Source: a virus (lineage: Duplodnaviria; Caudoviricetes). From it: 64,000 nucleotides of DNA. Of this stretch, positions 19,604 through 36,538 are shown piece after piece (position 1 is the first letter of the stretch; each line of letters opens with the position of its first letter). The translations under genes were made by a program, and so were the position numbers. Location: positions 192,001-256,000 of IMG/VR virus record IMGVR_UViG_3300017716_001697, one strand, 5' to 3'. Under the pieces are notes generated by a model. That model did not search any database, was not told where the DNA came from, and saw only the letters and a program-made list of their open reading frames with translations.

Positions 19604-19632
19604 TTGACAGCATTGTCAAACACTGTTACAAT
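19604..19632 (+). promoter_or_regulatory. sigma70-type early promoter of the tRNA-Arg/rtcB unit
   Basis: TTGACA-N17-TACAAT. Confidence 0.75.
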
Positions 19633-19658
19633 ACATACATCGCAACAAGGAGTCTATT

Positions 19659-19739
19659 ATGCTTAATCAAATTGCAATGTATGTTAACTGGGAATTCATG
19701 GCTTCAGTCGTCATCCCGGTTCTGACTCGACTGTTTTAA
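19659..19739 (+). CDS. 26-aa hydrophobic peptide
   Basis: RBS AAGGAG; MLNQIAMYVNWEFMASVVIPVLTRLF. Confidence 0.55.
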   Translation: MLNQIAMYVNWEFMASVVIPVLTRLF

Positions 19740-19745
19740 ACACTT

Positions 19746-19820
19746 CTGGCGTTAGTACAATGGATAGTACAGGGGATTTCTACTCCCTAGATAGGGGTTC
19801 GATTCCTCTACGCCGGACCA
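19746..19820 (+). tRNA. trnR: tRNA-Arg(UCU)
   Basis: Full cloverleaf: acceptor CTGGCGT/ACGCCGG, anticodon loop TT-TCT-AC, T-loop TTCGATT, encoded CCA. Confidence 0.95.
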
Positions 19821-19837
19821 CCTAATTGAGAATACAA

Positions 19838-20095
19838 ATGACTATTTTACAAGAAACCAAACGTGTTGATTTCGACCCCGCTATTACCGAGCATCGTCAT
19901 GCTGTGGTAGCGTTCATGAAGCGTACAGCGTGGATGGACTCGCCTTTGCGATTCAATTACGACCCTGACTACGGCAGCGTTGCCGACCAAGTTCGCATTA
20001 AGATGCTGGACTGGTACATCGAGCAAGACACAGGCTTCAAGCCAGCGCCACACAAGAATCTCCCGGTGTTCGAACGCAGGCACGAAGATGTTTAG
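19838..20095 (+). CDS. Hypothetical protein
   Basis: ORF directly after the tRNA. Confidence 0.7.
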   Translation: MTILQETKRVDFDPAITEHRHAVVAFMKRTAWMDSPLRFNYDPDYGSVADQVRIKMLDWYIEQDTGFKPAPHKNLPVFERRHEDV

Positions 20096-20372
20096 TCCAC
20101 GTAACAAAATTGAAACTGTGACAATGATGGCATCCGAAGTTGAGACAGTGGACACACTGTACGAACTTTGCGATGCTGAATTCAACAGCAGAAGTGATGT
20201 GCATAACAGCTTCCAATCCGCACGTGGTGCAGCGAGCTGGGCACGATACTTCCTATTGCACGAAGTGCGTAAGGTAGCGGCTCGTGAAGATATCTTCTGT
20301 AGCTATCACATGGCATTTGTGGTTGCATCTAAGCTGTCAGAAGTCTGGTTTGAACAGAAAGAAACAGCGTGA
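20088..20372 (+). CDS. Hypothetical protein
   Basis: Overlap-coupled ORF. Confidence 0.65.
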   Translation: MFSPRNKIETVTMMASEVETVDTLYELCDAEFNSRSDVHNSFQSARGAASWARYFLLHEVRKVAAREDIFCSYHMAFVVASKLSEVWFEQKETA

Positions 20373-20566
20373 CATACGAAAGCAGAAAAGAGCAAGCAGA
20401 ACAAATTCTTGCGCTAACTCTGCTGGATATATCAGTACTCCGGCATGCCGCAGCACGCCAACAATCCATTACACACGAAAAGCATATTGATCATCATTAT
20501 CGCGACGCAATTGATGTGTTAGAAAAGAAAGCTGTGAGCGACAGAGCATATCTTGCTAGGTTTTAG
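20369..20566 (+). CDS. Hypothetical protein
   Basis: GTGA overlap. Confidence 0.6.
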   Translation: MTYESRKEQAEQILALTLLDISVLRHAAARQQSITHEKHIDHHYRDAIDVLEKKAVSDRAYLARF

Positions 20567-20574
20567 GATACGGT

Positions 20575-20745
20575 ATGATTTGTCCGAAATGTGATACACT
20601 GATGGGTGCAATGGGGTATGGTGATGAACGGTGTCCTGCTTGTGGACACACATCATATTCTGAATCTGATGAAGAATTTAATCTTCGCATATACGGTACA
20701 ACATTCCGTGAAGGCGAAGATATTGACACTGAACAAAGAGAATAA
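20575..20745 (+). CDS. Small Zn-ribbon protein (56 aa, absent from ORF track)
   Basis: MICPKC...RCPACG; stop 1 nt before the rtcB ATG. Confidence 0.7.
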   Translation: MICPKCDTLMGAMGYGDERCPACGHTSYSESDEEFNLRIYGTTFREGEDIDTEQRE

Positions 20746-20746
20746 T

Positions 20747-21940
20747 ATGGAAATCGAAAATGTAAAAATGTGGGTAGGTGATATGGAAGTAGAGCAAGCA
20801 GCTCTATCCCAAATCCTAAACATTTCCCAACTACCTATCCTTGCTGGACACATGGCTATCATGCCAGACGTACACATGGGTAAAGGTGCCACTGTGGGTT
20901 CTGTTATCCCTACACGTTCTGCAATTATTCCTGCGGCTGTGGGTGTGGATATCGGCTGTGGTATGATTGCAGCAATGACCAACCTTACTGCCGATGATCT
21001 TCCTGACTCATTGTTTTCGTTGCGTAATGCAATTGAAAAGGTAGTACCTGTAGGATTCAACGAACACGCAAAGGGCATCCCTTCTGTATCGGGACCTTAC
21101 GCAGATATCCTGCGCAAGAATTTGCACAAGACAATGGATCAATGGGATCACTTGGCAATGAAGCAGCACCTTGGTCGTGCTGACGAAAAGCGCATTGCTC
21201 GCCAAATCGGTACGCTAGGTGGTGGTAACCACTTTATCGAAATCTGTCTCGATACATCTAACCGTGTGTGGATTATGTTACACAGTGGTTCACGCGGTAT
21301 CGGCAATCAAATCGGCACTGTTGCAATCGAAATGGCTAAAGAACAGGCTGCTAAACGTGCATGGGGTCTCCCTGATGCTGATCTTGCATGGCTGGACGAA
21401 GGCACAACCGAATTCGATGCATACATTGAGGCAATGCATTGGGCACAGGACTATGCAAAATTCAACCGCGATACAATGCTGAATTTGGTTATTTCTGCAA
21501 TGAAGGTAAAGTTTCCTACAATGAAGATTGTTGGCGAAGTTGTAAACTGCCACCATAATTTTACAAGCGTGGAAGAGCACTTCAATGAAAAGATCTGGGT
21601 GACACGTAAGGGTGCAGTTTCTGCGCAGTATGGGCAAATGGGTATTATTCCCGGCTCAATGGGTGCAAAGTCATTCATTGTTCGCGGTAAAGGTAATCCT
21701 GATTCCTACTGCTCGTGTTCGCATGGTGCTGGTCGTAAGATGAGCCGCAACCAAGCTAAGAAGTTGTTCACATCACTTGATCTAGAACAACAAACAGCCG
21801 GTGTTGAGTGCCGTAAGGATGCAGACGTAGTTGATGAAATTCCGGGTGCATATAAGGATATTGATCAGGTAATGGCAGCGCAGGCTGATTTGGTTGATAT
21901 TGTACACACGTTGAAGCAAGTTCTTTGTATTAAGGGGTAA
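20747..21940 (+). CDS. rtcB: RtcB RNA ligase (joins 3'-P or 2',3'-cyclic-P to 5'-OH)
   Basis: PDVHMGKG, VGVDIGCG, GTLGGGNHFIE, HSGSRG, HHNF, RKGA, PGSMG, SHGAGR, YKDI motifs. Confidence 0.97.
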   Translation: MEIENVKMWVGDMEVEQAALSQILNISQLPILAGHMAIMPDVHMGKGATVGSVIPTRSAIIPAAVGVDIGCGMIAAMTNLTADDLPDSLFSLRNAIEKVVPVGFNEHAKGIPSVSGPYADILRKNLHKTMDQWDHLAMKQHLGRADEKRIARQIGTLGGGNHFIEICLDTSNRVWIMLHSGSRGIGNQIGTVAIEMAKEQAAKRAWGLPDADLAWLDEGTTEFDAYIEAMHWAQDYAKFNRDTMLNLVISAMKVKFPTMKIVGEVVNCHHNFTSVEEHFNEKIWVTRKGAVSAQYGQMGIIPGSMGAKSFIVRGKGNPDSYCSCSHGAGRKMSRNQAKKLFTSLDLEQQTAGVECRKDADVVDEIPGAYKDIDQVMAAQADLVDIVHTLKQVLCIKG

Positions 21941-21942
21941 TC

Positions 21943-22995
21943 ATGGGATCATGGAACGGAACATGTGCAGTATCTAACCTGCACGTACGAAGCGGGCAAG
22001 AGGTAGCAGTATTCATGCTGCTCGAAAACAAAAGATCAAAATCCTTCTGTTATGGTAATGCATTGTACGATGTATGCCCGTTACCATTCTATGGCAAGTA
22101 TAATGATTACGGTGCAGTAGAAGACTGCCAAGGCCCGGTGTTGCCCATTGTGGTTGACGAAATCAAGCGCCAGCTGTACGAATTTGGCCAAGGCCCGAAC
22201 AGTAGCCACGACATGGTAGTACGCAGGGCCGATTTTGACATTGATCTGTTATTTGAAGCCGACCACGAAGATCGTCTCGGTATTCAATATACACCCTTCT
22301 TCGACGAAGATGATTATGATCTTCGCGAATTGCGTAAAGACGGTGAAAAAGATCAACTTACACCAGATCAGCAATTCGAGCTTGACAGACTAGCCAACAA
22401 ACTCAAACAGGTAGATACATTTAGACGTGTTACACACGTAATTATTCATGGTGATATTTTCCGTGATATCATGAATAAATATTACATCGATGAATATGTT
22501 GGTGACAGCAAAGGTACAACAGGTTATGGAAATAACTATAACCGTGTATTCTTTAAGGATATTCTTGCATCTATTCCTGCATACATCGATGCCTGCAAGT
22601 CTGAAGCGGCAAGAATTAATGCTATGACTGACCCGCATGAACAATGGGCAGAACGAAACATTCCTAAGGATGAATGGAAGAATCCTAATCTTGCAGCAAG
22701 ATGGCTAAACAGCTTCAGTAATAGCAGCGAAGGATTCGGGCTTCTTCGTGTCGACGAATACATTCGCGAATATAAGAATGACGGCCGGTGGGACGAGCTG
22801 ACAGACTTTGTTACAGAAGCGTTAAAGGGTGCATGGGTAAATAGATATATGTCATCCATCCGTAAGCTGTGGTCGAAGCAGACAGGTGCCGGCTCTCAGA
22901 ATGATGAACATGATGGATACAATATCCTGATCCAATCAATGACAGACGTATTGGCGGCCGAGAAGAAGGCGTGGGATGACGAGAACGGGGAGTAG
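21943..22995 (+). CDS. Hypothetical phage protein
   Basis: 350 aa, MGSWNGTCAVSNL..., coupled to rtcB. Confidence 0.8.
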   Translation: MGSWNGTCAVSNLHVRSGQEVAVFMLLENKRSKSFCYGNALYDVCPLPFYGKYNDYGAVEDCQGPVLPIVVDEIKRQLYEFGQGPNSSHDMVVRRADFDIDLLFEADHEDRLGIQYTPFFDEDDYDLRELRKDGEKDQLTPDQQFELDRLANKLKQVDTFRRVTHVIIHGDIFRDIMNKYYIDEYVGDSKGTTGYGNNYNRVFFKDILASIPAYIDACKSEAARINAMTDPHEQWAERNIPKDEWKNPNLAARWLNSFSNSSEGFGLLRVDEYIREYKNDGRWDELTDFVTEALKGAWVNRYMSSIRKLWSKQTGAGSQNDEHDGYNILIQSMTDVLAAEKKAWDDENGE

Positions 22996-23006
22996 TTGGT
23001 AATCAG

Positions 23007-23035
23007 TTGACATTGTTGCTGTGATAGTATATAAT
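23007..23035 (+). promoter_or_regulatory. sigma70-type early promoter
   Basis: TTGACA-N17-TATAAT. Confidence 0.8.
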
Positions 23036-23054
23036 TTGTTAACAGGAGAAATTT

Positions 23055-23297
23055 ATGATTTTTACCGAAGACGAGCTTGCTCAAATAGATAAGTTGTTGC
23101 GCTGCAATGCGCCAGATTTGCCAGAGACTGTTGCAGCGGCCAGTAAGTTGGGAGCCGAGTTGAAAGCAAAATACGGGAATGATTTGCGAATACAAGGTAT
23201 GAATGAAGCTAGTGCTTTCTTCAAGGAAGCTCATGCTGCTGCCCGTCCGCAAGAAGAGGCAATAAAGTGGATTAAGAAGAATTCGAAGATTCACTAA
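23055..23297 (+). CDS. Hypothetical protein
   Basis: RBS AGGAG after a promoter. Confidence 0.75.
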   Translation: MIFTEDELAQIDKLLRCNAPDLPETVAAASKLGAELKAKYGNDLRIQGMNEASAFFKEAHAAARPQEEAIKWIKKNSKIH

Positions 23298-23317
23298 ATA
23301 GTTTGTAAGAATATCGT

Positions 23318-23395
23318 GCGATGGTAGCTTAGATGGCCTAAAGCCCTCGACTCATAATCGAGATATCGTGGGTTCGACTCCCACCCGTCGCACCA
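23318..23395 (+). tRNA. tRNA with CAU anticodon (elongator Met or Ile2)
   Basis: Acceptor GCGATGG/CCGTCGC, anticodon arm CTCGA-CTCATAA-TCGAG, T-arm GTGGG-TTCGACT-CCCAC, ACCA end. Confidence 0.95.
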
Positions 23396-23399
23396 TTTA

Positions 23400-23720
23400 A
23401 TAAGGTAATAACAATGTTGTTCATTACGGACAATGGAAATATATAGAGACTCCTGATCACAGTAGCTTGCTATATTTCGCGATTGTTGAATCCTCGACGC
23501 GGATTCGTCTGTGGGTCAATGAGGACTGGTTGCGTGTGACCGGCGCAACAGGTAATAGATATATTTGTGTACGAGACGCTTCAATAATCGTGATTACCAA
23601 CCTTTAAGGTGTATAGCGGTCGTTCCGTTATGTACTGGTAGTGGAAGTATCTCTGCCTACAATCGTTGAGAGACGCCCTAGGCACATCTCTACATCGCGA
23701 CTGCCAACTATTATAAAATA
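23400..23720 (+). ncRNA. Candidate structured non-coding RNA downstream of the CAU tRNA
   Basis: No ORF of 60 aa or more; stems GAAATATA/TATATTTC, GAATCC/GGATTC, GTTGCG/CGCAAC, GGTAAT/ATTACC. Confidence 0.4.
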
Positions 23721-23724
23721 GTGC

Positions 23725-23753
23725 TTGCCCTGATTCCTGTTATATTGTATAAT
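23725..23753 (+). promoter_or_regulatory. sigma70-type promoter
   Basis: TTGCCC-N17-TATAAT. Confidence 0.6.
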
Positions 23754-23759
23754 AGGGTT

Positions 23760-24272
23760 ATGAAGCACATACTATTACTACTGGCATTAATCCCTACCAC
23801 TGTAGAATTAGGTAAAGACATCATCTGCCGACGTGACCCACCTAAGATTGATGCTGCACAAGCAAAATGTTTGGCCACTACCATTTACGGCGAAGCTCGC
23901 GGGGAGAGCGAGAAGGGTCAGGTAGCAGTAGCATATACTGTCATGAATCGTGCTGTAAACCGCACATTATGCCAGGTTGCACTAGCACCTAAGCAGTACA
24001 GCATCTTTAACAATAACCCTGAATTACGAGCTGCGGCTACAAGCATGCATATCGAGCCAAAGCAGAAAAATGTCATCGATCAGAAAAGTTGGGATCGTGC
24101 TGTTAAGGTTGCTAACATGGTAATCCAACGTGCAGTCAAGGACCCAACTAACGGTGCAACACATTATCTTGCACCAATCGTAATGAAGGCTAAAAACTAT
24201 CGTTATCCGCGCTGGTCTAGGGAATACAAATTGGTCGCAGTGATTGACGGGCACAAATTCTTCAAAGCATAA
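23760..24272 (+). CDS. SleB-like cell wall hydrolase (Hydrolase_2)
   Basis: CLATTIYGEARGES...QVAVAYTVMNR, QYS, GATHY, IDGHKFF; signal peptide. Confidence 0.92.
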   Translation: MKHILLLLALIPTTVELGKDIICRRDPPKIDAAQAKCLATTIYGEARGESEKGQVAVAYTVMNRAVNRTLCQVALAPKQYSIFNNNPELRAAATSMHIEPKQKNVIDQKSWDRAVKVANMVIQRAVKDPTNGATHYLAPIVMKAKNYRYPRWSREYKLVAVIDGHKFFKA

Positions 24273-24273
24273 C

Positions 24274-24546
24274 ATGGCTATTAAACCAACTGACTATGTT
24301 GTCAACGTGAGTAAACTGCCAAATATACCTATGGATATGTGGCCCGCGTTCTGGATGAATTTCCAGAGACATATTGAGAAGAATATAAACTGGTCTGTCC
24401 GATATAACGGCGATCGTGTCGGGGACGAAATTAACAAATATCTTAGAAATATCGACGCCGAAATGAAACATAATAAGAAGAATGAAATCATTGTGAAATT
24501 TAAATCCGAAGCTGATTTCTTAATCTTCAAAATGAGATGGCTATGA
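24274..24546 (+). CDS. Family A small protein
   Basis: PxxWxNF...VKFKSEADFLIFKMRWL. Confidence 0.85.
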   Translation: MAIKPTDYVVNVSKLPNIPMDMWPAFWMNFQRHIEKNINWSVRYNGDRVGDEINKYLRNIDAEMKHNKKNEIIVKFKSEADFLIFKMRWL

Positions 24547-24794
24547 GTGGATATAGGGTTAACTTCGAAACACTCGAGCCCGATTTACCTACCTATCCTA
24601 CATGTTGGATTAATTTCTGCGACAAAGTACGAGAAGATGATGATTTTGTATCTAGGAGCGGCGGAATGCATTGCGCACTTACTGAGCGTCTCAAATCAAT
24701 TGGTATCAAACGCATAAAAGACCCCGCGCAGTGGGTTATACTTGAGTTCGAATCAGAGGCAGATTTTCTTGTCTTTAAACTAAGGTGGGGTTGA
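24543..24794 (+). CDS. Family A small protein
   Basis: PTCWINF...LEFESEADFLVFKLRWG. Confidence 0.85.
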   Translation: MSGYRVNFETLEPDLPTYPTCWINFCDKVREDDDFVSRSGGMHCALTERLKSIGIKRIKDPAQWVILEFESEADFLVFKLRWG

Positions 24795-24795
24795 T

Positions 24796-25080
24796 ATGTA
24801 TCGCGTAAACATACAGGAGGTATCCGAAATTGTTGATCACGGTGATGCGTATATTCCTCCGCAGTGGTGGATTAATTTTGAAAAATATGCGAATACGCTT
24901 GTTGACTGGACCGAAGCATGGCGTCGCGATCCTCATGCATTTAATGAATGCTCGCCAGGATTTTATGCAATGAAGGGGTTACTTAGGGGATTAGGTGCAG
25001 ACATTATCGCAGATGGCAGCTATACTCTCTTGTTCGCAGATGAGGCTGACTTCTTGGTATTTAAACTAAAGTGGGGCTAA
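24796..25080 (+). CDS. Family A small protein
   Basis: PQWWINF...LLFADEADFLVFKLKWG. Confidence 0.85.
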   Translation: MYRVNIQEVSEIVDHGDAYIPPQWWINFEKYANTLVDWTEAWRRDPHAFNECSPGFYAMKGLLRGLGADIIADGSYTLLFADEADFLVFKLKWG

Positions 25081-25506: not shown

Positions 25507-25570
25507 GGCAGTTGACATTGTACGCAAAATAGCGTACAATTAATAGGCAGTGTGAGTGCAGACCCAGAGG

Positions 25571-25663: not shown

Positions 25664-26290
25664 ATGATATGCGAATACGGATGTAATGGGGAGGCCAATC
25701 ATCAATTACTAAACGGTAAATGGTGTTGCAGTAAACGGCCCGCTGGTTGCAAGGTGCTAAAGGCAGTTAACTCGGCAGGTCTGAAGAAAGCGCATAGTGA
25801 GGGTAGGGGCGGATATATTTACAAAGATCTATCTGACGAAACCAAAGCCCGAATGAATTGGGCTAAGGGTAAGACTATTACACCCGATAGCGAAATATTT
25901 ACAGAAAATAGCACATACTCTAACGAGATGGTTAAACATAGAATTGTTAAAGGTGATCTATTAGAATACAAATGCTCTAATCCGAAATGTGGAATAACCG
26001 AATGGTGCGACGAATCTATTGTGTTAGATTTGGATCATATAAATGGTAACAACACAGATAACAGATTATCTAATTTACGATACTTATGCCCAAATTGCCA
26101 TTCTCAGACAGACACATACAAGGGCAGAAATAAGAATACAGGTAAGTTGAAAGTAACCGACACTGAATTGTTGGCAGCATATAAGGAATGCAATAATATT
26201 AGGCAAGCATTAATCAGCGTAGGAATTGCTGCAAAGGGTGGCAATTATGAAAGATTAAAAAAATTAATTAGCAAAACGCTTGCCCTATAG
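25664..26290 (+). CDS. Free-standing HNH homing endonuclease
   Basis: LDLDHINGNNTDNRLSNLRYLCPNCHSQT; N-terminal CEYGC..WCC Zn motif; C-terminal HTH-like tail; late box GATAAATA and RBS AGGAG. Confidence 0.9.
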   Translation: MICEYGCNGEANHQLLNGKWCCSKRPAGCKVLKAVNSAGLKKAHSEGRGGYIYKDLSDETKARMNWAKGKTITPDSEIFTENSTYSNEMVKHRIVKGDLLEYKCSNPKCGITEWCDESIVLDLDHINGNNTDNRLSNLRYLCPNCHSQTDTYKGRNKNTGKLKVTDTELLAAYKECNNIRQALISVGIAAKGGNYERLKKLISKTLAL

Positions 26291-26308
26291 CTAAATATGT
26301 TGTATAAT
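26280..26308 (+). promoter_or_regulatory. Promoter for the tRNA/ncRNA array
   Basis: TTGCCC-N17-TATAAT with an internal TAAATA. Confidence 0.6.
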
Positions 26309-26358
26309 TAATGCATAGCAGCTGATTACAGTAGCTTGTAGAGATCATTAATAAATTA

Positions 26359-26648
26359 GCGGGTATGGAGAAATTGGTAAACTCACCAGACTTAGAGAAA
26401 TAAAATTTGAGTGCCCGGTCGGAAACGATCGGAGTAGAACCTGTCAAATTCGGCGAACACTTTAACATGTCAACGCCGAGCGAAGCCCGAAAGGGAACGT
26501 GTAGAGACTTGACGGCAGGTACCTAACGCAGAAATGCTACGGTAAAGACAAAGTCCAGACTATCAAACCGAGAGGGTAGCGAAAGCTATAGTAGTAAGAA
26601 AATCTGGCGCCGCAAGGCTTGACGGTTCAAGTCCGTCTACCCGCACCA
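26359..26648 (+). tRNA. trnL: tRNA-Leu(UAA) interrupted by a group I intron
   Basis: Exons 26359..26393 and 26599..26648 join into GCGGGTA/TACCCGC acceptor, CCAGA-CTTAAAA-TCTGG anticodon arm, long variable arm and ACCA. Confidence 0.93.
26394..26598 (+). mobile_element. Group I intron (IC3-like, 205 nt, no ORF)
   Basis: P1 ACTT/GAGT with U-G at the splice site; P AAATTCGGCGAA, Q AACGCCGAGCGAAG, R GTGTAGAGACT, S AAGACAAAGTCC; terminal G. Confidence 0.92.
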
Positions 26649-26746
26649 TATTAGGATACATTGTGCAGACGCGGTAGCTAGCCCAAAAGGGACTTTACTA
26701 GCGACAATGGTGAATGCAGGTACAACAGTGTATCCCAATATGGTGC
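26643..26746 (+). ncRNA. Array element E1 (long closing stem, branched interior)
   Basis: GCACCATATT-A-GGATACATTGT / ACAGTGTATCC-C-AATATGGTGC. Confidence 0.75.
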
Positions 26747-26927
26747 CATATTAAAACGCATAAATGCATTAGTTGCATTGGTAATCTGAATGACGTGGAT
26801 AGCTGCATCTTACCCACTGTCAAACAGAGGACATTGCAGGTGATAGCAAATGTAATGGTTTACAGCTAGGCGATTAGAGTCTGGTAGGTGGGTTCAACTC
26901 CTGCTAATGCGGTTTAACATGGCACCA
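26744..26927 (+). ncRNA. Array element E2 (long stem enclosing a tRNA-like domain, ends in CCA)
   Basis: TGCCATATTAAAACGCAT / ATGCGGTTTAACATGGCA; internal T-arm GTGGG-TTCAACT-CCTGC. Confidence 0.7.
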
Positions 26928-27017
26928 TATCGAAGTACATTAACTGAGTACAAGGCTCAGCGTGCGAATTTTAGTAACTAAGCCTCAAGAGGAAGCTATA
27001 GTGTACTTCGATATGGT
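26924..27017 (+). ncRNA. Array element E3
   Basis: Perfect 16-bp stem ACCATATCGAAGTACA/TGTACTTCGATATGGT with three small internal hairpins. Confidence 0.8.
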
Positions 27018-27065: not shown

Positions 27066-27189
27066 AAACTCGACTGTGGTGTAATGGTAGCACTCAAAAG
27101 TTCCTGGTTCGAATCCAGGCCCGCAATAACCAAAGGGGGTTCGGCACAACGAGTAGGAGAGATGGTTCGATTCCGTCCGAATAGAGTTT
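27066..27189 (+). ncRNA. Element E4: D-arm plus two T-arms, no anticodon arm
   Basis: GTGT-AATGGTA-GCAC; CCTGG-TTCGAAT-CCAGG; GATGG-TTCGATT-CCGTC; closed by AAACTC/GAGTTT. Confidence 0.6.
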
Positions 27190-27190
27190 G

Positions 27191-27269
27191 CATATTAGAG
27201 GGCATTATGCTTCTATTTAAAAAGGGAGCCTGTGCTGGCACATTGGCACATCTAATGTCCTCTAATATG
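27191..27269 (+). ncRNA. Array element E5
   Basis: 17-bp stem CATATTAGAGGGCATTA/TAATGTCCTCTAATATG. Confidence 0.8.
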
Positions 27270-27423
27270 ATGCAGGTAGGCAAATGTGGTAAAGCCGCCG
27301 GTTCGGTCCGGTGAGAGATATGTTGAAGTCTTACATGATGACGGGTAGCTGGGTCGACACAGTCCGTACAGTGGCAGGAGCGATATATTTCGTTTATGGG
27401 TTCGATTCCCATCTTGTATCCCA
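27269..27423 (+). ncRNA. tRNA-His-like RNA with 84-nt variable region and 6-nt anticodon loop
   Basis: G-1:C73 pair, acceptor ATGCAGG/CTTGTAT, D-arm GGC/GCC, T-arm ATGGG-TTCGATT-CCCAT, CCA end. Confidence 0.7.
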
Positions 27424-27428: not shown

Positions 27429-27628
27429 GCCAGGGTAGCTCAGTCAGGCACGAAACTTAAAGGGAAGATGTTGCAACATTCAACGGAGAGAAGTAATGAC
27501 TTAGGAAGGTTAAGTAGTAAGCATCTTATGATACGCGGTGTAAGGTGTGTAGGTGATAGCCAACTATTAAGTAGAGCAACCAGTATCTAACTGGAAGGTC
27601 GTTGGTTCAATTCCATCCGCTGGCACCA
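27429..27628 (+). ncRNA. tRNA-like RNA with a ~120-nt structured D-loop insertion
   Basis: Acceptor GCCAGGG/CGCTGGC, D-stem GCTC/GAGC enclosing 132 nt, anticodon arm CCAG-TATCTAA-CTGG, T-loop TTCAATT, ACCA. Confidence 0.75.
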
Positions 27629-27634
27629 AATTAT

Positions 27635-27749
27635 GCGATGATAGCTTCAGGTTGGTAGAGCGCGTCATTGAATGCCCTATTTATTCTACGTTATGGTATA
27701 TAGGCGAGTGGTCAGGACGAGGTCGCAGGTTCAACGCCTGCTCATTGTA
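27635..27749 (+). ncRNA. tRNA-Phe(GAA)-like RNA with ~40 extra nt in the anticodon loop
   Basis: Acceptor GCGATGA/TCATTGT, D-arm GCTT/GAGC, CGTCA-TT-GAA...GGACG, T-arm GCAGG-TTCAACG-CCTGC. Confidence 0.72.
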
Positions 27750-27753
27750 TAAG

Positions 27754-27861
27754 CCATATGAGAATACACTGTGGAGAGCACTGCGTATGACTGGGAAGGT
27801 TTGAACCCGACTCACATCGTCACTCGGTATCCTGCGGCCGCAACAGTGTATTCCCATATGG
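27754..27861 (+). ncRNA. Array element E7 (paralog of E1)
   Basis: CCATATG-A-GAATACACTGT / ACAGTGTATTC-C-CATATGG; compensatory changes relative to E1. Confidence 0.8.
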
Positions 27862-28185
27862 TACGAAGGGTAGAAGATGATATCAAAGGCTATTTCCTTT
27901 TTTGATAGACGAAACGCTGTGGCCACGGTGTTAGACTACTTATTGGTTAACCATTGTACCGCCAGATTCCGAAGCCTGTAATCAGGCCTGCCAAACAGTA
28001 AATTGGAGTGTGGGAGGACGCACTTAAAACCATCTCCCGCAGGGTCACCATGTGTTATGAGCGGTGATAGTTTAGCGAACCGGAGTCCTAAAAACCGGAA
28101 GGGTAAAGCAAACTTACCTACAAGTAGCGAAAGGTCTGCTATAGCAGTCAAGCCATCCTAGTCTGGAAAACTAGGGTGCATTTAT
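27862..28185 (+). ncRNA. Unassigned multi-hairpin RNA ending in a terminator-like stem
   Basis: Stems TATCAAA/TTTGATA, GCCTG/CAGGC, GAGTGTG/CGCACTT, TCACC/GGTGA, GGGTAA/TTACCT, CATCCTAG/CTAGGGTG. Confidence 0.45.
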
Positions 28186-28348
28186 TTTAGAAAGATATCC
28201 ATATGTACACTTATGCATGGACCATATTTGGTTATTACGGTGGACCTACTATGACAACAAATTATCAACAACACTGTTCGTGGTACACTGTTGACGATTT
28301 TGGTGATCTCGTACCTGCCACATACAAAATGGATTATTTGGAGACAAC

Positions 28349-28563: not shown

Positions 28564-28797
28564 ATGACGTACAAATACGTGATTACTGTAGACTATCCTG
28601 AGCGAAGGCATATCTGGGATTGGTGTGTAGAACACATAGGTAAGTCAGCGCATGATACATTTTACTATGATCCGGGACAAGGGCAGTGGCCCAATATTCC
28701 GAAATTCATAATTTATAATCCAGAACATGCTACATTGTTTAAATTAGTATGGGGTGAATATATAAAGGGCAACGTGAAGGCCCCGTGCAGTATATAG
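28564..28797 (+). CDS. Family A small protein
   Basis: IWDWCVEHIG...FIIYNPEHATLFKLVWG. Confidence 0.8.
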   Translation: MTYKYVITVDYPERRHIWDWCVEHIGKSAHDTFYYDPGQGQWPNIPKFIIYNPEHATLFKLVWGEYIKGNVKAPCSI

Positions 28798-28874: not shown

Positions 28875-29011
28875 ACCATATCAAATCATATTGCCCTACC
28901 CATTGGGTAGCAGACAGTGGTTGGAAGGATCTGCTCGTTACTCGCCGCGTTGGATGCACTCGGGTTGCACCGATGCCAACAGACAGTGATTGCAGTATGA
29001 TTTGATATGGT
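28875..29011 (+). ncRNA. Array element E8
   Basis: 20-bp stem ACCATATCAAATCATATTGC/GCAGTATGATTTGATATGGT with a branched interior. Confidence 0.8.
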
Positions 29012-29119
29012 CATTATATAGAAACAGAATTCTATGTTACAGGCGTGGGGGGTACGAACCACATTAAATAAATAAGTAACTGAAAATCCTGTGCCCCTCG
29101 AGTATGTTTCTATATGGTG
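29012..29119 (+). ncRNA. Array element E9
   Basis: 15-bp stem CATTATATAGAAACA/TGTTTCTATATGGTG abutting E8. Confidence 0.7.
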
Positions 29120-29242
29120 ATGTAGTGTCCTCGAAAGGGACTGTGGCGGGGCGGAACGGATCGTTATACGGTGATGCCCATGAGAATTCAATCCACACGG
29201 AGCAAGAGTAAGTGAACGTGAGTAGCCGACTACCAATCACCA
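29115..29242 (+). ncRNA. Array element E10
   Basis: TGGTGAT-GTAGT / ACTAC-CA-ATCACCA; overlaps the 3' end of E9. Confidence 0.55.
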
Positions 29243-29333: not shown

Positions 29334-29463
29334 TCTTATTGAAGTACATTTTTGTCCACATTTCTCCAGGGAGCGACTGTGGGTGCGTTGTCACTAAACT
29401 ATACGACGCCAACCATCCCTAGACTGTACGTAAGACACACAGTTGGAATGTGCTTCAATAAGA
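29334..29463 (+). ncRNA. Array element E12 (paralog of E3)
   Basis: 17-bp stem TCTTATTGAAGTACATT/AATGTGCTTCAATAAGA. Confidence 0.78.
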
Positions 29464-29480: not shown

Positions 29481-29750
29481 ATGTCACACTCAATGCAACT
29501 TAACATACCAGACCGAGTTTTCGGTAATTGTCATTACCTTGTGGCTCCTCGCATCAGAGAATGGATGGATGAATATAAGTTGCATATCTCGTACTGTGGA
29601 TCTAATTTATCGGGTACAGGATACAACAAGAACGGGGAATCTAATAAAGAATGGTCCTACATGGTGTACAATATCAAAGAAGAAGATGCATCCATGTTTA
29701 AAATCCGATTCCCGGATTGCAAAGTGTATCTTAGTGAACAGGTTGCATAA
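29481..29750 (+). CDS. Family A small protein
   Basis: YNIKEEDASMFKIRFP. Confidence 0.75.
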   Translation: MSHSMQLNIPDRVFGNCHYLVAPRIREWMDEYKLHISYCGSNLSGTGYNKNGESNKEWSYMVYNIKEEDASMFKIRFPDCKVYLSEQVA

Positions 29751-31545: not shown

Positions 31546-31546
31546 G

Positions 31547-31813: not shown

Positions 31814-31819
31814 TACAAG

Positions 31820-33202: not shown

Positions 33203-33357
33203 GCTTTACAGAACAGACACCATATCGCAGAGGATATGAGGATGCGCAGAACGGTAAGGAGTTCTATGAGAATCCATTCTTCCCCGGTACACCGGATCAC
33301 AACCAATATCGTGACGGTTGGGAAGATGTTGCAGGCGAAATAGGGGAAGAAGAATGA
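33199..33357 (+). CDS. Rmf/CrpP-fold-like 52-aa protein (absent from ORF track)
   Basis: YRRGYEDAQNG...NPF...QYRDGWED; ATGA overlaps at both ends. Confidence 0.55.
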   Translation: MSFTEQTPYRRGYEDAQNGKEFYENPFFPGTPDHNQYRDGWEDVAGEIGEEE

Positions 33358-33740
33358 AATCGCATGAATTAGCTGCTTTATTGTTGTCTCAACCTGACGT
33401 AGAGGTGGTAGCAAAAGGCGAGTGGGGATCAGAAATCATCACAGGGACAGTAATGGTAAAGCCTGCAGATGGTAATGCGGTGTATACCGATGCTGAATTG
33501 CAATCAATACGTGATGCTGTTGTTGAGTTCGATACAAAAGACTTTGCCGGCGAATACAATACAATGATTGAAGACATTAACGCAACGGCTGATCCGAAAC
33601 ATATCAAAGAACAGTTAGAGTATTGGGGTTCTCTGGAAAAATATACAGAAGTGTTTGCACGTGGCAGGGTGTACAATATGGAAATTCTAAATGCGTGTGA
33701 CACCGCTGAATATCAACTATTGCTGGTAGTGGAGACATGA
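33354..33740 (+). CDS. Hypothetical protein
   Basis: MKSHELAALLLSQPDVEV. Confidence 0.7.
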   Translation: MKSHELAALLLSQPDVEVVAKGEWGSEIITGTVMVKPADGNAVYTDAELQSIRDAVVEFDTKDFAGEYNTMIEDINATADPKHIKEQLEYWGSLEKYTEVFARGRVYNMEILNACDTAEYQLLLVVET

Positions 33741-34063
33741 AACAAGAAACTGCTATAACCCGTGTGTGGGCTCTTATCAGCACACGAAAGTATGTTGAAG
33801 CTGATGCGCTGATGCGTAAGTATAGACGCAAGTTTGGTAATCGCAAATTCGATTATTGGATGCGTCTTAACATCTTAAATGGACTTTGGGAACTGGAGTG
33901 CGAAATGATACAAAAATATCCATCAGCGTATTACTGCCACATAGGCACTGAACACTACATGATGTGCGAAGGAATTCGTAGCAGACATGTGACAAAGGAA
34001 GAAGTGATTGGATTGTGCAAGAAATACAATGCAGAACATAATCTGCCGAATGTAACATTATGA
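33737..34063 (+). CDS. Hypothetical protein
   Basis: Overlap-coupled ORF. Confidence 0.65.
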   Translation: MKQETAITRVWALISTRKYVEADALMRKYRRKFGNRKFDYWMRLNILNGLWELECEMIQKYPSAYYCHIGTEHYMMCEGIRSRHVTKEEVIGLCKKYNAEHNLPNVTL

Positions 34064-34371
34064 ACTTCGTATTTGTTAGACTGTGTGATAACGACTTTCA
34101 GAGTCTTGCTGAAGCAACAGAATACGTCTGGAAGAACAAAGAGCATCCGCTTACTGAAGCAGAGTTTAAGCACTTTGTGGTAAACTATGTTGTGTTCCAG
34201 AATAGCGTAAGAAGAATTGGTAAAAACTTCATGAACAAGGACCATGAACACACACGCAAATATTTAGAAGGTCGCATCAAGGTCGAATACGTTGATATCA
34301 AACCAAACGTCGATCACGATGGTGGTAGCGTTATTCTGGATGTAAATACAGGATATACCTGGAGAACATAA
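34060..34371 (+). CDS. Hypothetical protein
   Basis: Overlap-coupled ORF. Confidence 0.65.
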   Translation: MNFVFVRLCDNDFQSLAEATEYVWKNKEHPLTEAEFKHFVVNYVVFQNSVRRIGKNFMNKDHEHTRKYLEGRIKVEYVDIKPNVDHDGGSVILDVNTGYTWRT

Positions 34372-35189
34372 TGGCGCAGCACGCACACTACTGGTCGTGT
34401 TCCACATTTGCAGATTGGCTGCGTGGTACACCAAAATTGAAGTCAGGAACAAGCAAACAGTGGTCTGAGTGGAAAAAGGCTGCACGTAAGGCGCATCCGC
34501 ATCGGTATTGGATGGCCGAAGAAGCATTGGGTAAGATTCAGGATGCAGTAACTTGGCCTGTGCGATCACTCTACGACATCAAATATTATTGCGTTAATAG
34601 ATGGGTTACCAAATCACATGCTCTTACTGCTCATTCAACAGACATTAAACCCGGCGCGTGGTGCGATCTGAGCAACAGATTCCTGTTCTGCATGTTCAAC
34701 GAGTTGGTTGACTTTGTAGAAATCGAGACTGCATGGAGTCACATTGCATGGGGCGACAAAGAGCTACGTGAAAAATATGACGCACCGTGGAATGCAACAG
34801 GATGGTTCCGCACACGTAAATGGCGTAGTGCCGAAGCTGGATTAGACCATCTCAAATGGGCAAGTGAACTAACGTGGCCAGAGGACAACACAGGCGAACC
34901 CACGTCCCAAGCACTCACTGCTATTAAAATTCGAATGCTGTATGATTGGTGGAAAAATGTTCGACCTGCCAGGCCTGATCCTTACGATGCAAGTGGATGG
35001 AGTGAAATTTGCGATGCACGCCGTGAGCGTGACGGTGATAGCATCTTCGGCGAAGATCGTTCAGACGAAGAGCGTGCCCAAAGTAAGGTAGCATTAGACA
35101 AGCTGCACGAAATCGAAGAGCGGTACGAAGACGAAGACGAAACTATGATGATCCAGCTTATTAAGATAAGAAAAGGATTGTGGACATAA
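34371..35189 (+). CDS. Trp-rich hypothetical phage protein
   Basis: 272 aa, HYWSCSTFADWLRG...LIKIRKGLWT. Confidence 0.8.
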   Translation: MAQHAHYWSCSTFADWLRGTPKLKSGTSKQWSEWKKAARKAHPHRYWMAEEALGKIQDAVTWPVRSLYDIKYYCVNRWVTKSHALTAHSTDIKPGAWCDLSNRFLFCMFNELVDFVEIETAWSHIAWGDKELREKYDAPWNATGWFRTRKWRSAEAGLDHLKWASELTWPEDNTGEPTSQALTAIKIRMLYDWWKNVRPARPDPYDASGWSEICDARRERDGDSIFGEDRSDEERAQSKVALDKLHEIEERYEDEDETMMIQLIKIRKGLWT

Positions 35190-35308
35190 TTAATTTCTGA
35201 AATGGGGATGCGCTGGATGTAATATGTCATCGGGCCCTACAAGTATGCCTTCGTGACCATTCAGTGGCTGGTTCAAGACCAGCGCAGGAATTTTAAAGGA
35301 TAAAATAT

Positions 35309-35509
35309 ATGGAAGATACAGTTCAAATAACTATTACCTCGTGTGATAAATGTCCACAGGTAGCAATTAGACGCCACTACACTGCTGATTCGTTTGAGCA
35401 TGTTATGGCATGGGAGTGTAGGAAAAGCGACATGAAGCACATCACATTCAACGAGTGGAATGATCCAAAACCGCCTATACCGAAGTGGTGTTTGCTTCGT
35501 AAGGGTTAA
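35309..35509 (+). CDS. Small Cys-containing protein
   Basis: SCDKCP...WEC...IPKWCLL. Confidence 0.65.
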   Translation: MEDTVQITITSCDKCPQVAIRRHYTADSFEHVMAWECRKSDMKHITFNEWNDPKPPIPKWCLLRKG

Positions 35510-35511
35510 GA

Positions 35512-35850
35512 ATGGGAGTATCTACAAATTTTTACACAATATACGGAGTACGCACTGAGTGGGACAGCGATTTCTCAGAGGCGTATGACGAAGTATACAA
35601 AGATCCCGATGTACCATTTGTGTTGATGGATAGCATGGGTGGCGAATATTTTATATTTGGTATTGTGTTATTCAACTCTGGCGATATGCGCTGGGGATTC
35701 GAAAATGGTGATGCATTCAAAGAAATTGATTTAGGCGCGCTATCGGGATTAGAAACAGAATATCGTCAGAAATTTATTCCTAAATTTCCGCAATTTGCAT
35801 CATTGATTGACCAACCATTTAAACTAATGACTCTTGCCCATTACGGATGA
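35512..35850 (+). CDS. Hypothetical protein
   Basis: MGVSTNFYTIYG...LAHYG. Confidence 0.7.
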   Translation: MGVSTNFYTIYGVRTEWDSDFSEAYDEVYKDPDVPFVLMDSMGGEYFIFGIVLFNSGDMRWGFENGDAFKEIDLGALSGLETEYRQKFIPKFPQFASLIDQPFKLMTLAHYG

Positions 35851-35860
35851 ATTCATCCGA

Positions 35861-35889
35861 TTTACAAGCTGTATAAATAGCATTATAAT
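35861..35889 (+). promoter_or_regulatory. Composite promoter: sigma70 with an embedded T4-late box
   Basis: TTTACA-N17-TATAAT with TATAAATA at 35872..35879. Confidence 0.65.
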
Positions 35890-35894
35890 TAGAT

Positions 35895-36068
35895 ATGAAC
35901 AAAAGAGGACGGCGAGAAGCATTGATGGAAAGGCGGCGAGGCCCTAAGCCACTAAAGACTCGCGAACAATGGATAGCAGAAATGCAAGAACAGTGGAATC
36001 AGATAAAGGAATATAAAGAAATAAATCCCGAAAGTGTAAGGATTGCTAAAGAATTAGGTTTGAAGTAA
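35895..36068 (+). CDS. 57-aa basic protein directly upstream of the ribozyme (absent from ORF track)
   Basis: MNKRGRREALMERRRGPKP...; stop 2 nt before hammerhead stem I. Confidence 0.55.
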   Translation: MNKRGRREALMERRRGPKPLKTREQWIAEMQEQWNQIKEYKEINPESVRIAKELGLK

Positions 36069-36070
36069 AT

Positions 36071-36228
36071 CACAACTGATGAGCCTGTAAGGGCGAAATC
36101 ACAGAACTTGTAGAACTGTTTGGGAACCTTTTAACTCGGTGTATACAACATCCGAAAGGATGCCCGTAAGGAAACGAAGGGAACTGCCTGAGACTAGGAT
36201 ATAGGACTTCTCGTTCTGTGATATTGTG
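36071..36228 (+). ncRNA. Type I hammerhead ribozyme with ~105-nt insertion in loop III
   Basis: Stem I CACAA/TTGTG, core CTGATGA, stem II GCC-TGTAAG-GGC, GAAA, 10-bp stem III ATCACAGAAC/GTTCTGTGAT, cleavage triplet AUA (cut 36223/36224). Confidence 0.88.
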
Positions 36229-36510
36229 TTAGAAAGGTTGATCCACTGGCTTTCACTGCCCACTGGCTTGCTGCTTAAAATTGGCCGCCATGGATTTGTA
36301 CTAAGGATCAAAGGTAACTTGCGCTCATCCAAACGCAGAAGGAGATATATCCAAAGGATCTTTAACCAACTCTAATAGACGATGATAGTAGGGCAAAATA
36401 TTAACGCCCGAGCCACTTACTCGTACCGATAGCCGGGGTGTAATGCATATAGATTATAAATGTAGTATAGATAGAGTTAGGAAGGTAGTAATACTGAAAC
36501 TAACAGGAGT
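36229..36510 (+). ncRNA. Structured RNA downstream of the hammerhead
   Basis: No plausible ORF; stems GGTT-GATCC/GGATC-AACC, AACTCTA/TAGAGTT, GGGC/GCCC, CGAG/CTCG; repeat CCACTGGCTT x2. Confidence 0.55.
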
Positions 36511-36538
36511 AAGCCCATGTAACAGTGGGCTTTCTTTT
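36511..36538 (+). terminator. Intrinsic terminator
   Basis: AAGCCCA/TGGGCTT stem plus T tract. Confidence 0.8.

Follow-up and report, generated by a model that had tools for sequence, protein, structure and literature searches.

The window is a stretch of 64,000 nucleotides (G000:C1:192001-256000) from a 364,576-bp virus record that has terminal repeats. Its source phage, called G000 where a label is needed, is giant, freshwater and uncultured. The tract of 17 kb described here holds rtcB, tRNA genes, tRNA look-alikes, stem-closed RNA units and a hammerhead ribozyme, all on one strand (Table 1). Promoters are sigma70-like consensus matches out of 12, and terminators are terminator-like hairpins. 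The RNA elements listed in a preliminary description of this tract are partly confirmed overall, and nearly every one of them is real.

Table 1. Features of the tract; positions are those of the window.
Feature	Position	Strand	Remarks
sigma70-like promoter, TTGACA-17-TACAAT with TG	19604..19632	+	11/12 matches; upstream of tRNA-Arg and rtcB
tRNA-Arg(UCU), canonical	19746..19820	+	59.3 bits
rtcB, RNA 3'-phosphate/5'-OH ligase	20744..21940	+	Pfam RtcB, 8e-128
350-aa protein, phrog_5960	21943..22995	+	adjoins rtcB; 3.4 kb from rtcB in G001
tRNA-Met(CAU), canonical	23318..23395	+	64.5 bits
HNH endonuclease, free-standing	25664..26290	+	just upstream of intron-bearing tRNA-Leu
sigma70-like promoter of first RNA array	26280..26308	+	10/12 matches
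tRNA-Leu(UAA)	26359..26648	+	exons 26359-26393, 26599-26648; group I intron 26394-26598
Stem unit E1	26643..26746	+	stem begins on ACCA end of tRNA-Leu
Stem unit E2, diverged stem	26741..26927	+	T-arm and D-arm-like hairpins in cargo
T-arm-bearing fragment	~26840-26912	+	within E2 span
Stem unit E3, canonical stem	26924..27017	+	
Two partial look-alikes	27070..27186, approximate (~27070-27135, ~27136-27186)	+	T-arms 27103-27119, 27161-27177
Stem unit E5	27191..27269	+	
tRNA look-alike, 6-nt anticodon loop	27270..27423	+	~80-nt stem-closed variable arm
tRNA-Arg(UCU)-like RNA	27429..27628	+	~125-nt D-loop insertion
tRNA-Phe(GAA)-like RNA	27634..27756	+	19-40 extra nt just 3' of anticodon
Stem unit E7, canonical stem	27753..27862	+	cargo family common to L040, L014, L034
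Terminator-like hairpin (intrinsic) and T-run	28154..28190	+	closes first array
Stem unit E8	28875..29011	+	
Stem unit E9, diverged stem	29010..29121	+	
Stem unit E12	29334..29463	+	UAUUGAAGUACAUU core, stem base altered
Type I hammerhead	36072..36229	+	stem III carries 105 inserted nt; cleavage predicted after A36224
Terminator-like hairpin	36511..36540	+	ends hammerhead transcript

The presence of rtcB is borne out by its Pfam match and by a complete set of metal- and GMP-binding motifs (PDVHMG, DIGCG, GGGNHF, HSGSRG, CHHN and SHGAGR); judged by its sequence, the gene is intact, with all catalytic motifs. The two normal tRNAs reported earlier, tRNA-Arg(UCU) and tRNA-Met(CAU), are likewise present. 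That rtcB and tRNA-Arg share a transcript, as reported, is only an inference from the upstream promoter and the finding of no terminator-like site between it and the end of rtcB. In six sister contigs (L137-L142, RtcB 71-75% identical) rtcB sits directly between same-strand tRNA genes, and in two of these, L137 and L138, only 11-25 nt separate it from them. The association of rtcB with tRNA genes recurs across relatives and is the link that holds up. It fits the established view, invoked in the preliminary description, that phages counter host anticodon nucleases with RNA ligases and tRNAs of their own (PMC7824862). Like T4, whose Pnkp and Rnl1 counter PrrC, and like jumbo phages with RtcB, Rnl1, Rnl2 and tRNA sets (PMC7824862), this phage has an intact RtcB-family ligase and its own tRNAs, and its sister phages hold rtcB inside a tRNA array. 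The present case differs in being known from genes alone, not from a target nuclease, a cut site or a repaired tRNA, and in having neighbouring odd RNAs that do not co-occur with rtcB.

Between rtcB and the first RNA array are separate strong promoters at 23007 and 25093 (12/12 each), 25512 and 26280, and a 14-bp terminator at 25566. By such calls rtcB, the RNA array and the hammerhead fall into separate promoter/terminator units.

The one intron-split tRNA noted earlier is upheld as tRNA-Leu(UAA). Its 205-nt intron follows U34 and scores 53 bits against Rfam RF00028 (gathering score 50), and the spliced form is called as a tRNA by ARAGORN when introns are permitted. The group I intron of cyanobacterial and plastid tRNA-Leu(UAA) interrupts the same tRNA at the same point, and the phage intron passes the Rfam group I model. 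It differs from these in being phage-encoded, in having a second, uninterrupted tRNA-Leu(UAA) in the same genome (genome 15366-15442), and in adjoining an HNH endonuclease gene while holding none. Homologues of this endonuclease are found inside the tRNA arrays of other phages.

Look-alikes are here ARAGORN calls obtained only once one internal segment is deleted. At least four altered tRNAs had been proposed; three complete look-alikes stand, and the remainder are at least three T-arm fragments that are not full-size, including two partial look-alikes (27070..27186) in which no tRNA is callable even with deletion scanning. The variable arm of the look-alike at 27270..27423 resembles a degenerate stem unit. 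The T4 tRNA cluster similarly combines genes for stable RNAs that are not tRNAs, rnaC and rnaD (species 1 and 2), with a free-standing homing endonuclease, segB; the function of these RNAs is still unassigned (PMC9697503). T4 rnaC combines a canonical T-arm with an acceptor-like stem. Unlike the present array, the T4 cluster does not have the conserved CCAUAU...AUAUGG clamp stem, its modules are far fewer, and it has no counterpart of the three look-alikes, in which the full cloverleaf is preserved apart from a single large insertion.

About ten stem-cargo units had been counted. Their existence is confirmed, but with units taken as stem-closed and stems of 17-24 bp there are eight in the window, and of the 16 stems in the window that reach 15 bp or more, 8 fall in their 2.9 kb. 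Members of the same family occur in 39 viral contigs of IMG/VR, in tRNA arrays of uncultured phages, and in 92 metagenome stretches that partly overlap the viral set. Prokaryote genomes gave only 3 matches in 596 Gb, two of them in phage-type tRNA arrays, and Rfam gave no match to the family. This clamp-stem family is widespread, undescribed and, by its distribution, specific to phage tRNA arrays. Its stems run to about 18 bp, the consensus being ACCAUAUUGAAGUACAUU opposite AGUGUAUUUCAAUAUGGU. Each one starts on the NCCA tail of whichever tRNA or tRNA-like RNA comes before, finishes at the next RNA or a few nt short of it, and encloses an exchangeable structured cargo.

Across 80 distinct units the stems contain 1217 Watson-Crick, 110 G-U, 22 A-C and 11 other pairs, and wobbles are conserved at two positions (U-G at position 16 in 51/80, G-U at position 11 in 30/80). 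CCA begins 65 of the 80 units, and in 69 the nucleotide preceding CCA is paired to the one that follows UGG. The upstream tRNA supplies its CCA as the first three bases of the stem in at least 27 units, where the downstream tRNA starts 0-15 nt past the stem. The excess of G-U over A-C, the conserved wobbles and the CCA register together suggest that the stems act as RNA on the tRNA strand. The cargo of E8 is ~95% identical to that of a unit in a distant relative (G006) whose proteins are only ~44% identical to those of the present phage, and the stems of the two units differ with compensating changes. A wastewater relative lacks E1 and E2, its tRNA-Leu running straight into E3. These two observations suggest that the cargos are functional and modular, and the near-invariant stem sequence suggests a specific binding or cutting partner. 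As a candidate for this partner, no ORF of at least 100 aa was common to all unit-bearing genomes yet absent from G001, the closest complete relative.

Alternatively, the stems could work mainly as DNA, either as inverted repeats belonging to small mobile cassettes or as sites of recombination by which cargo is shuffled between phage tRNA arrays, with the RNA hairpin a by-product. The indel in the wastewater relative falls exactly at a unit boundary, one cargo can be found in more than one stem and genome, the variable arm of a look-alike contains a degenerate unit, and homing endonucleases inhabit the same arrays. We nevertheless regard this as improbable: on the tRNA strand there are five times as many G-U as A-C pairs, with wobbles kept at two positions, the arms co-vary within units so that no single protein-binding sequence is preserved, the stems line up exactly, at the RNA level, with where the flanking tRNAs have their CCA and +1 ends, and no recombinase was found to co-occur with the units.

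The hammerhead has a complete core (CUGAUGA, GAAA, an A15.1-U16.1 pair and A at H17) and stems I, II and III, and a syntenic copy in G001 shows compensatory changes in stems II and III. Its earlier identification is thereby sustained, at a score below the Rfam gathering threshold (18.5 bits against 52), probably because of the 105-nt insertion in stem III. It resembles type I hammerheads in having all core nucleotides and three stems, with stems II and III co-varying between the two phages, and differs in the ~100 nt inserted in stem III and the sub-threshold score. It occurs in both rtcB-bearing genomes (G000 and G001) and was not found in four genomes lacking rtcB; this association, weak and confounded by the relatedness of the two phages, still counts somewhat against independence. 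The hammerhead is probably a separate conserved self-cleaving element with its own transcription unit.

The preliminary description had joined RtcB, the altered tRNAs, the stem arrays and the hammerhead into one anti-defence system in which the array RNAs serve as decoys to host tRNA nucleases or, once cut, are matured or resealed by RtcB. All parts do lie within 17 kb on the same strand. Hammerhead cleavage leaves 2',3'-cyclic phosphate and 5'-OH ends, which RtcB can join, and G001, which also bears rtcB, has kept the hammerhead. Three rtcB-holding tRNA arrays (L138, L140 and L142) also contain units. Co-occurrence of rtcB with the arrays, proposed there as a check, instead gave a double dissociation. 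Only 1 of 39 unit-bearing contigs has rtcB (PF01139) and the other 38 have units without it; the gene is missing from all four contigs whose completeness reaches 90%, and the base rate of RtcB is 710 in 50,697 phage records. G006 has at least five units and no rtcB. Conversely, G001 (RtcB 80% identical; 259 of 503 ORFs matching, median amino-acid identity 59%) lacks units throughout its genome, despite 47 tRNA/tmRNA genes, and 13 of 19 close RtcB loci are without units.

Look-alikes are no rarer in relatives lacking rtcB: orphan tRNA-like T-arms on the tRNA strand are equally frequent with or without the gene (G000 22, G001 17, G006 18, G012 11, G017 7, G034 7). The arrangement itself is not conserved in the nearest relative, where the block syntenic to the window, at 56-33 kb, has neither rtcB (20 kb away) nor arrays, and the parts lie in separate transcription units. 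EndA, RNase III and Ro/TROVE protein, three possible cut-and-reseal partners that could supply cuts or a scaffold, were not found encoded in the phage genome, and a single hammerhead leaves no excised ribozyme-flanked RNA to circularise. Many hosts carry an RtcB of their own, so absence of a phage rtcB is no proof that the units never meet one. Taken together, we consider the single system very unlikely; the link of rtcB to tRNA genes is what survives of that interpretation.

The units and look-alikes could instead be decoys or sponges acting independently of RtcB, with tRNA-like cargos and masked NCCA ends that soak up or evade tRNA nucleases. A canonical T-arm abutting the stem ends 15 of 80 cargos, and conservation of cargos between distant phages is strong. 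The tRNA most often found upstream is tRNA-Lys (~15 of ~33 assignable cases), the target of PrrC and PARIS, but this bias may just mirror synteny common to related phages. Most cargos have no tRNA-like feature, and we think this explanation unlikely.

The rsr-yrlA-rtcBA operon, with Ro60 and tRNA-like Y RNAs, also places RNAs with a long stem and tRNA-like module near rtcB. The present phage differs in encoding no Ro/TROVE protein, its RNAs have no Rfam Y RNA or YrlA match, and its stem is unrelated in sequence and replaces the acceptor end, not the anticodon stem. Other parallels are the RNase III processing stems found in rRNA operons and in early transcripts of T7, where a long duplex of flanking sequences brackets an RNA for release, and the removal of a whole hairpin by a single RNase E cut right after CCA (PMC5291269), where no gap separates the 3' end of the tRNA from the hairpin. 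Both differ from the clamp stem, which is nearly invariant across very different phages and includes the CCA itself, its cleavage being only presumed.

We therefore favour, with somewhat better than even confidence, a mosaic tract whose RNA elements are inherited independently, and reject a single machine centred on RtcB. The best reading is an accessory, mobile-element-rich tRNA island beside an independently placed tRNA-repair gene. The island lies ~4.3 kb past rtcB and has a promoter (26280) and a terminator (28154) of its own, plus a second patch at 28.8-29.5 kb. It would comprise tRNA-Leu(UAA) with a self-splicing group I intron and the neighbouring homing endonuclease, stable-RNA-like look-alikes of the kind seen as rnaC in T4, and the eight clamp-stem members. 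The array may be transcribed as a polycistronic precursor. One cut would be made by a host tRNA-processing nuclease, either at CCA or beside it (RNase E/Z type) or within the stem (RNase III type), and a second by RNase P at the next tRNA, releasing tRNAs and hairpin-closed cargo RNAs that the long stem may shield from exonucleases. RNase E prefers single-stranded sites, and CCAUAU is paired within the clamp stem, which counts against an RNase E cut there. None of these steps would need RtcB.

In this phage lineage rtcB would be a tRNA-repair ligase gene, a single-gene resident of tRNA arrays that here retains its upstream tRNA-Arg(UCU) and downstream tRNA-Met. It likely does what such ligases are known to do, repairing tRNAs that host anticodon nucleases have cut, and the stems, by pairing with the NCCA end of the preceding tRNA, probably mark spacer RNAs freed by tRNA-processing nucleases.

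Phage tRNA arrays with an RNA-repair gene are a known kind of locus, and the tract is an unusually rich version of one. Of most interest in it is a family of CCA-clamping RNA stems that is widespread, independent of rtcB and undescribed in the sources searched. The phage genome (G000) is a complete virus record of 364,576 bp with direct terminal repeats; a freshwater metagenome, the sole full match to the window among public runs, is probably the source sample. Elsewhere this genome carries 44 canonical tRNA genes and a tmRNA, with 42 of the 44 tRNAs at genome 3.8-56 kb, so the tract studied here is a second, accessory RNA region. All genes and RNAs of the tract are on the + strand. The genome also has a tRNA with the anticodon CUA (amber-reading, labeled Pyl by ARAGORN); a CUA tRNA occurs in another phage locus, L050, as well.

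Features of the tract and of related loci (window coordinates unless marked genome or preceded by a locus name)
Feature	Coordinates	Strand	Basis or remark
tRNA-Arg(UCU)	19746-19820	+	ARAGORN and Rfam concordant
rtcB	20744-21940	+	PF01139
tRNA-Met(CAU)	23318-23395	+	ARAGORN and Rfam concordant
ORF-free stretch, ~320 nt	23396-23720		directly after tRNA-Met
ADFL-type small proteins	24244-25080, 28564-28797, 29481-29750	+	a tandem trio before the arrays, then one copy between them and one after
HNH gene	25664-26290	+	
Group I intron	26339-26574	+	Rfam model
tRNA-Leu(UAA)	26359-26648	+	ARAGORN, introns allowed; also read in the sequence
tRNA look-alike, 6-nt anticodon loop, ~80-nt variable arm	27270-27423	+	ARAGORN deletion scan
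Arg-UCU-like RNA, ~125-nt D-loop insertion	27429-27628	+	ARAGORN deletion scan
Phe-GAA-like RNA, 19-40 nt extra just 3' of the anticodon	27634-27756	+	ARAGORN deletion scan
Stem unit E8	28875-29011	+	
Isolated T-arm with upstream hairpins	35200-35295	+	
Hammerhead ribozyme candidate	36072-36229	+	read in the sequence
ORF-free, apparently structured stretch, ~280 nt	36230-36510		between hammerhead cleavage site and terminator
HD-domain protein	37415-37870	+	weak HD_4 match
tRNA with anticodon CUA	genome 33705-33780		ARAGORN
tmRNA	genome 30533-30892		
rtcB inserts in sister clade	L137:2567-3950; L138:9901-11280; L139:9602-11188		
rtcB inserts in sister clade, approximate	L140 around 10001-11188; L142 around 4792-5979		

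The rtcB gene of the preliminary description is intact. PF01139 matches it over its full length (8e-128, 427.7 bits, profile positions 1-426), and alignment to solved RtcB structures shows that the metal-binding and GMP-histidine motifs PDVHMG, DIGCG, GGGNHF, HSGSRG, CHHN, and SHGAGR are all kept. A strong sigma70-like promoter followed by tRNA-Arg lies upstream, and there is no terminator before the end of rtcB. In a sister clade whose RtcB is 71-75% identical, rtcB forms a one-gene insert with tRNA genes immediately on either side; the distance to them is 11-25 nt in loci L137 and L138, and a tRNA-Arg(UCU)/tRNA-Met pair is often nearby, as in the window. It is an established idea that phage RtcB reseals tRNAs cut by metal-independent nucleases (PMC7824862). 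The residence of rtcB among tRNA genes, which is tight in L137 and L138, supports such a tRNA-resealing role; it also makes co-transcription with tRNA-Arg in the window, previously put forward as apparent, plausible. Phage RtcB and phage tRNAs as insurance against anticodon nucleases are the known, ordinary part of the tract.

Both normal tRNAs of the preliminary description, tRNA-Arg(UCU) and tRNA-Met(CAU), were recovered by two callers, and its intron-split tRNA also stands. The anticodon loop of tRNA-Leu(UAA) is split after U34, the Rfam group I intron model scores 53 bits against a gathering score of 50, and ARAGORN, with introns allowed, calls a tRNA-Leu(taa) with a 205-nt intron at position 36 whose removal restores a canonical tRNA. 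Judged from these sequence features, the insert is a group I intron, and self-splicing is predicted. Homologues of the adjacent HNH gene occur within or next to tRNA arrays in several other phages, and the position of the gene by the intron-bearing tRNA-Leu would fit a homing role.

At least four altered tRNA-like RNAs had been reported. ARAGORN deletion scanning, in which a look-alike is an RNA that yields a callable cloverleaf once one internal segment is removed, confirms three of them (see the table); three further T-arm-bearing pieces in the array never became callable. The look-alikes are no closer to the phage tRNA-Arg, tRNA-Phe, and tRNA-His than to any other tRNA, and an origin as recent copies or pseudogenes of the phage's own tRNAs was rejected. 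Orphan T-arms are abundant in all six genomes examined, with or without rtcB (22, 17, 18, 11, 7, and 7 on the tRNA strand versus 1-5 on the other strand). Thirteen such motifs are interspersed among the canonical tRNAs of the G000 main array (genome 5-56 kb), so that tRNA look-alikes are not confined to the accessory island. One of the thirteen, at genome 30598, is close to the tmRNA call. Another, at genome 10179-10275, is called as tRNA-Trp only with a 26-nt intron allowed. The isolated T-arm (GCUGG UUCAAGA CCAGC) and its upstream hairpins, located in a gap between two ORFs, are a further partial tRNA look-alike outside the arrays.

The ~3 kb after tRNA-Leu are devoid of credible ORFs and contain eight stems of 17-24 bp with enclosed cargos of 45-145 nt; these account for half of the stems of ≥15 bp found anywhere in the 64-kb window. 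The stem-cargo units described earlier are real, and by stem scan they number eight, not about ten. CCAUAU...AUAUGG ends and an inner UACAYU/ARUGUA box are common to five of the local stems. The family was defined by a ~17-18-bp stem that starts on NCCA, ends in UGGN, and contains this inner box. Units E1, E3, and E7 match the strict pattern and E5, E8, and E12 a relaxed consensus; E2 and E9 have diverged. The main array, too, has a clamp-stem-like unit (UCAUAUUUAAAUGCACU / AGUGCAUUUAAAUAUAC), at genome 3685-3756 (L121:186-257), a short way upstream of its first tRNA. The ADFL-type small proteins that flank the arrays (77-100 aa, ending in a sequence like (E/D)ADFL(V/I)FK(L/M)RW) fall in no family of Pfam or PHROG; neither they nor the other small ORFs beside the arrays have homologues near units in other contigs.

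Across 80 distinct units, the stems comprise 1217 Watson-Crick, 110 G-U, 22 A-C, and 11 other pairs, with conserved wobbles at position 16 (U-G in 51/80) and position 11 (G-U in 30/80). The asymmetry between G-U and A-C pairs and the co-variation at positions 7-14 indicate an RNA hairpin on the tRNA strand, not paired protein-binding DNA repeats. Co-variation of each 5' arm with the 3' arm of its own unit led us to reject pairing between neighboring arms of the CRISPR-repeat type. CCA is present at the unit start in 65 of the 80, and in 69 the nucleotide preceding it is paired with the one following UGG. In at least 27 units this CCA coincides with the annotated 3' terminus of an upstream tRNA, tRNA-Lys being the commonest, and the next tRNA begins 0-15 nt past the stem. 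Where no upstream tRNA is called, several flanks, read by eye, show a short helix followed by N-CCA. The stem thus takes in the entire single-stranded NCCA tail of the RNA before it, as E1, whose stem starts on the CCA of tRNA-Leu, does to that tRNA.

An IMG/VR scan with a pattern of ~23 fixed bases, for which the chance expectation was estimated to be well below one, detected the stem in 39 other viral contigs. It is also present in 92 metagenome stretches, which are partly the same DNA as the viral matches. In 596 Gb of prokaryote genomes it occurs in only three places, two of which are phage-type tRNA arrays binned into metagenome-assembled genomes. Among cultured phages (50,697 records), megablast and blastn with the region or with single units as query gave no match. 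Rfam has no family matching the stem units, the literature sources searched contain no description of the stem family, and the array DNA shows no more than chance-level similarity to the genomes G001-G005. At nearly all of the loci listed, the units are inside large phage tRNA arrays and on the tRNA strand; L029 has no tRNA within its 13 kb.

The cargos form several families that recur across contigs, and 15 of the 80 have a canonical T-arm at their end, directly against the 3' arm. The E8 cargo is ~95% identical to a cargo in G006, a unit-bearing phage genome (131046-131182; L078:11046-11182), although the proteins are only ~44% identical, and the stems of the two units differ by compensating changes. 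This identity points to very strong selection on, or recent transfer of, an RNA of ~100 nt without an Rfam match. In a comparison of contigs from ~85-95% relatives, a wastewater relative lacks E1 and E2, and its tRNA-Leu is followed immediately by E3. The recurring, conserved cargos and this indel indicate that the units behave as exchangeable cassettes with conserved cargo. As to a dedicated stem protein, no G000 ORF of ≥100 aa combines occurrence in each of the four complete unit-bearing genomes with absence from G001, the nearest complete relative. Three partial candidates offered no useful lead: a UDP-glucose dehydrogenase, a protein without a family, and one encoded at G000 71082-72317.

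Co-occurrence of rtcB with the units across relatives, proposed as a check of the integrated cut-and-repair and decoy system, fails from both sides. PF01139 is found in 1 of the 39 unit-bearing contigs, which is no more than the RtcB base rate among phage records (710/50,697), and in none of the four unit-bearing genomes that are ≥90% complete (G006, 353 kb; G012, 167 kb; G017, 192 kb; G034, 168 kb). G001, with an RtcB 80% identical, shares 259 of 503 long ORFs with G000 at a median identity of 59%; its genome contains 47 tRNA/tmRNA genes and not a single unit. Of the 19 loci whose RtcB is ≥71% identical, 13 lack both tRNAs and true units within 10 kb. The remaining six have rtcB between tRNA genes, and three of these arrays also contain canonical units.

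A common transcription unit or a conserved adjacency finds no support either. Perfect promoters at 23007 and 25093, further promoters at 25512 and 26280, and a 14-bp terminator at 25566 lie between rtcB and the array, which ends in its own terminator (28154). The G001 block syntenic to window 17.9-37.9 kb, at 56-33 kb, has neither rtcB nor arrays; rtcB of G001 is at 78 kb and its 350-aa neighbor at 74 kb. Candidate partner proteins are also missing. Archaeal-type protein-spliced tRNA introns, processed by EndA and RtcB, were rejected because the splicing endonuclease EndA (PF01974) was not found in G000; it is not expected from bacterial hosts. A Ro60/Y RNA (YrlA) repair module was rejected on the absence of a Ro/TROVE gene (PF05731) from the complete genome, with control genomes positive, and of any Rfam match. 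A phage-encoded RNase III as stem cutter was not found in G000 either. The preliminary description was largely right in its observations, but without co-occurrence, a shared transcription unit, EndA, RNase III or Ro, the integrated system it built on them is unsupported. In our reading, rtcB and the clamp-stem units each reside in phage tRNA arrays independently of the other. Any of these RNAs could be acted on by a host's own RtcB.

The hammerhead has the complete core (CUGANGA, GAAA, A15.1-U16.1, H17) and stems I-III, and its minimum-free-energy fold reproduces the three stems. Its Rfam HH9 score, 18.5 bits, is below the gathering score of 52, presumably because the ~105-nt stem III insertion is unmodelled. 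The pattern is rare, with one match each in G000, G001, and one other locus in ~7 Mb of loci, both strands, and the window. The syntenic G001 copy (L055:1235-1358, minus strand; G001 ~41.2-41.4 kb) has the same stem I (CACAA/UUGUG) and the cleavage triplet AUA; stems II and III differ in sequence and are still paired, and stem III again carries an insertion, of ~95 nt. With these compensatory changes the earlier claim is upheld, and the hammerhead is accepted as a real ribozyme candidate. It has its own promoter (35861) and terminator (36511), and the apparently structured stretch downstream of the cleavage site would be released as a 5'-OH RNA. The hammerhead is present in both rtcB-bearing genomes and was found in none of the four rtcB-less ones (G006, G012, G017, and G034). 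These two closely related positives are not evidence of coupling; they are the one thread of the original idea that is left. The HD-domain protein encoded farther downstream is well conserved in G006 (76%) and G001 (61%), and may be a (p)ppGpp-type hydrolase.

We propose that the stems define spacer RNAs that would be set free by the nucleases maturing the flanking tRNAs. RNase E of Escherichia coli takes off a whole hairpin by one cut immediately after CCA, with the cleavage consensus R-N↓A-U (PMC5291269), and CCAU↓AU of the stem fits that consensus. This hairpin removal and the fit make spacer release credible. The paired cut site and the near-invariant stem sequence suggest that a specific reader of the stem is still missing. 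The best comparison for the island is the T4 tRNA cluster, with its stable RNAs and the free-standing homing endonuclease segB (PMC9697503); T4 rnaC has a T-arm and an acceptor-like stem. A more speculative reading, which we consider improbable, is that the cassettes are a new class of phage RNA device that hides in a helix the NCCA terminus of tRNAs or tRNA mimics and displays exchangeable structured cargos, some of them tRNA-shaped, as decoys or sponges for the tRNA-targeting defense nucleases of the host, and that, with rtcB, cut decoys and hammerhead products would be resealed. If so, the co-location of rtcB and array would be functional after all, in the minority of phages with both, this one included.

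On the preferred reading of independent residents, the RNA zoo beside rtcB is not an rtcB accessory. The island samples the wider content of phage tRNA arrays: clamp-stem cassettes, look-alikes resembling T4 rnaC, a tRNA group I intron, and homing endonucleases. The question moves from how RtcB deals with these RNAs to which conserved factor reads the near-invariant 18-bp, CCA-capturing stem and what roles the highly conserved cargos have. Work on the clamp stems may help to solve the T4 stable-RNA puzzle, now 50 years old.
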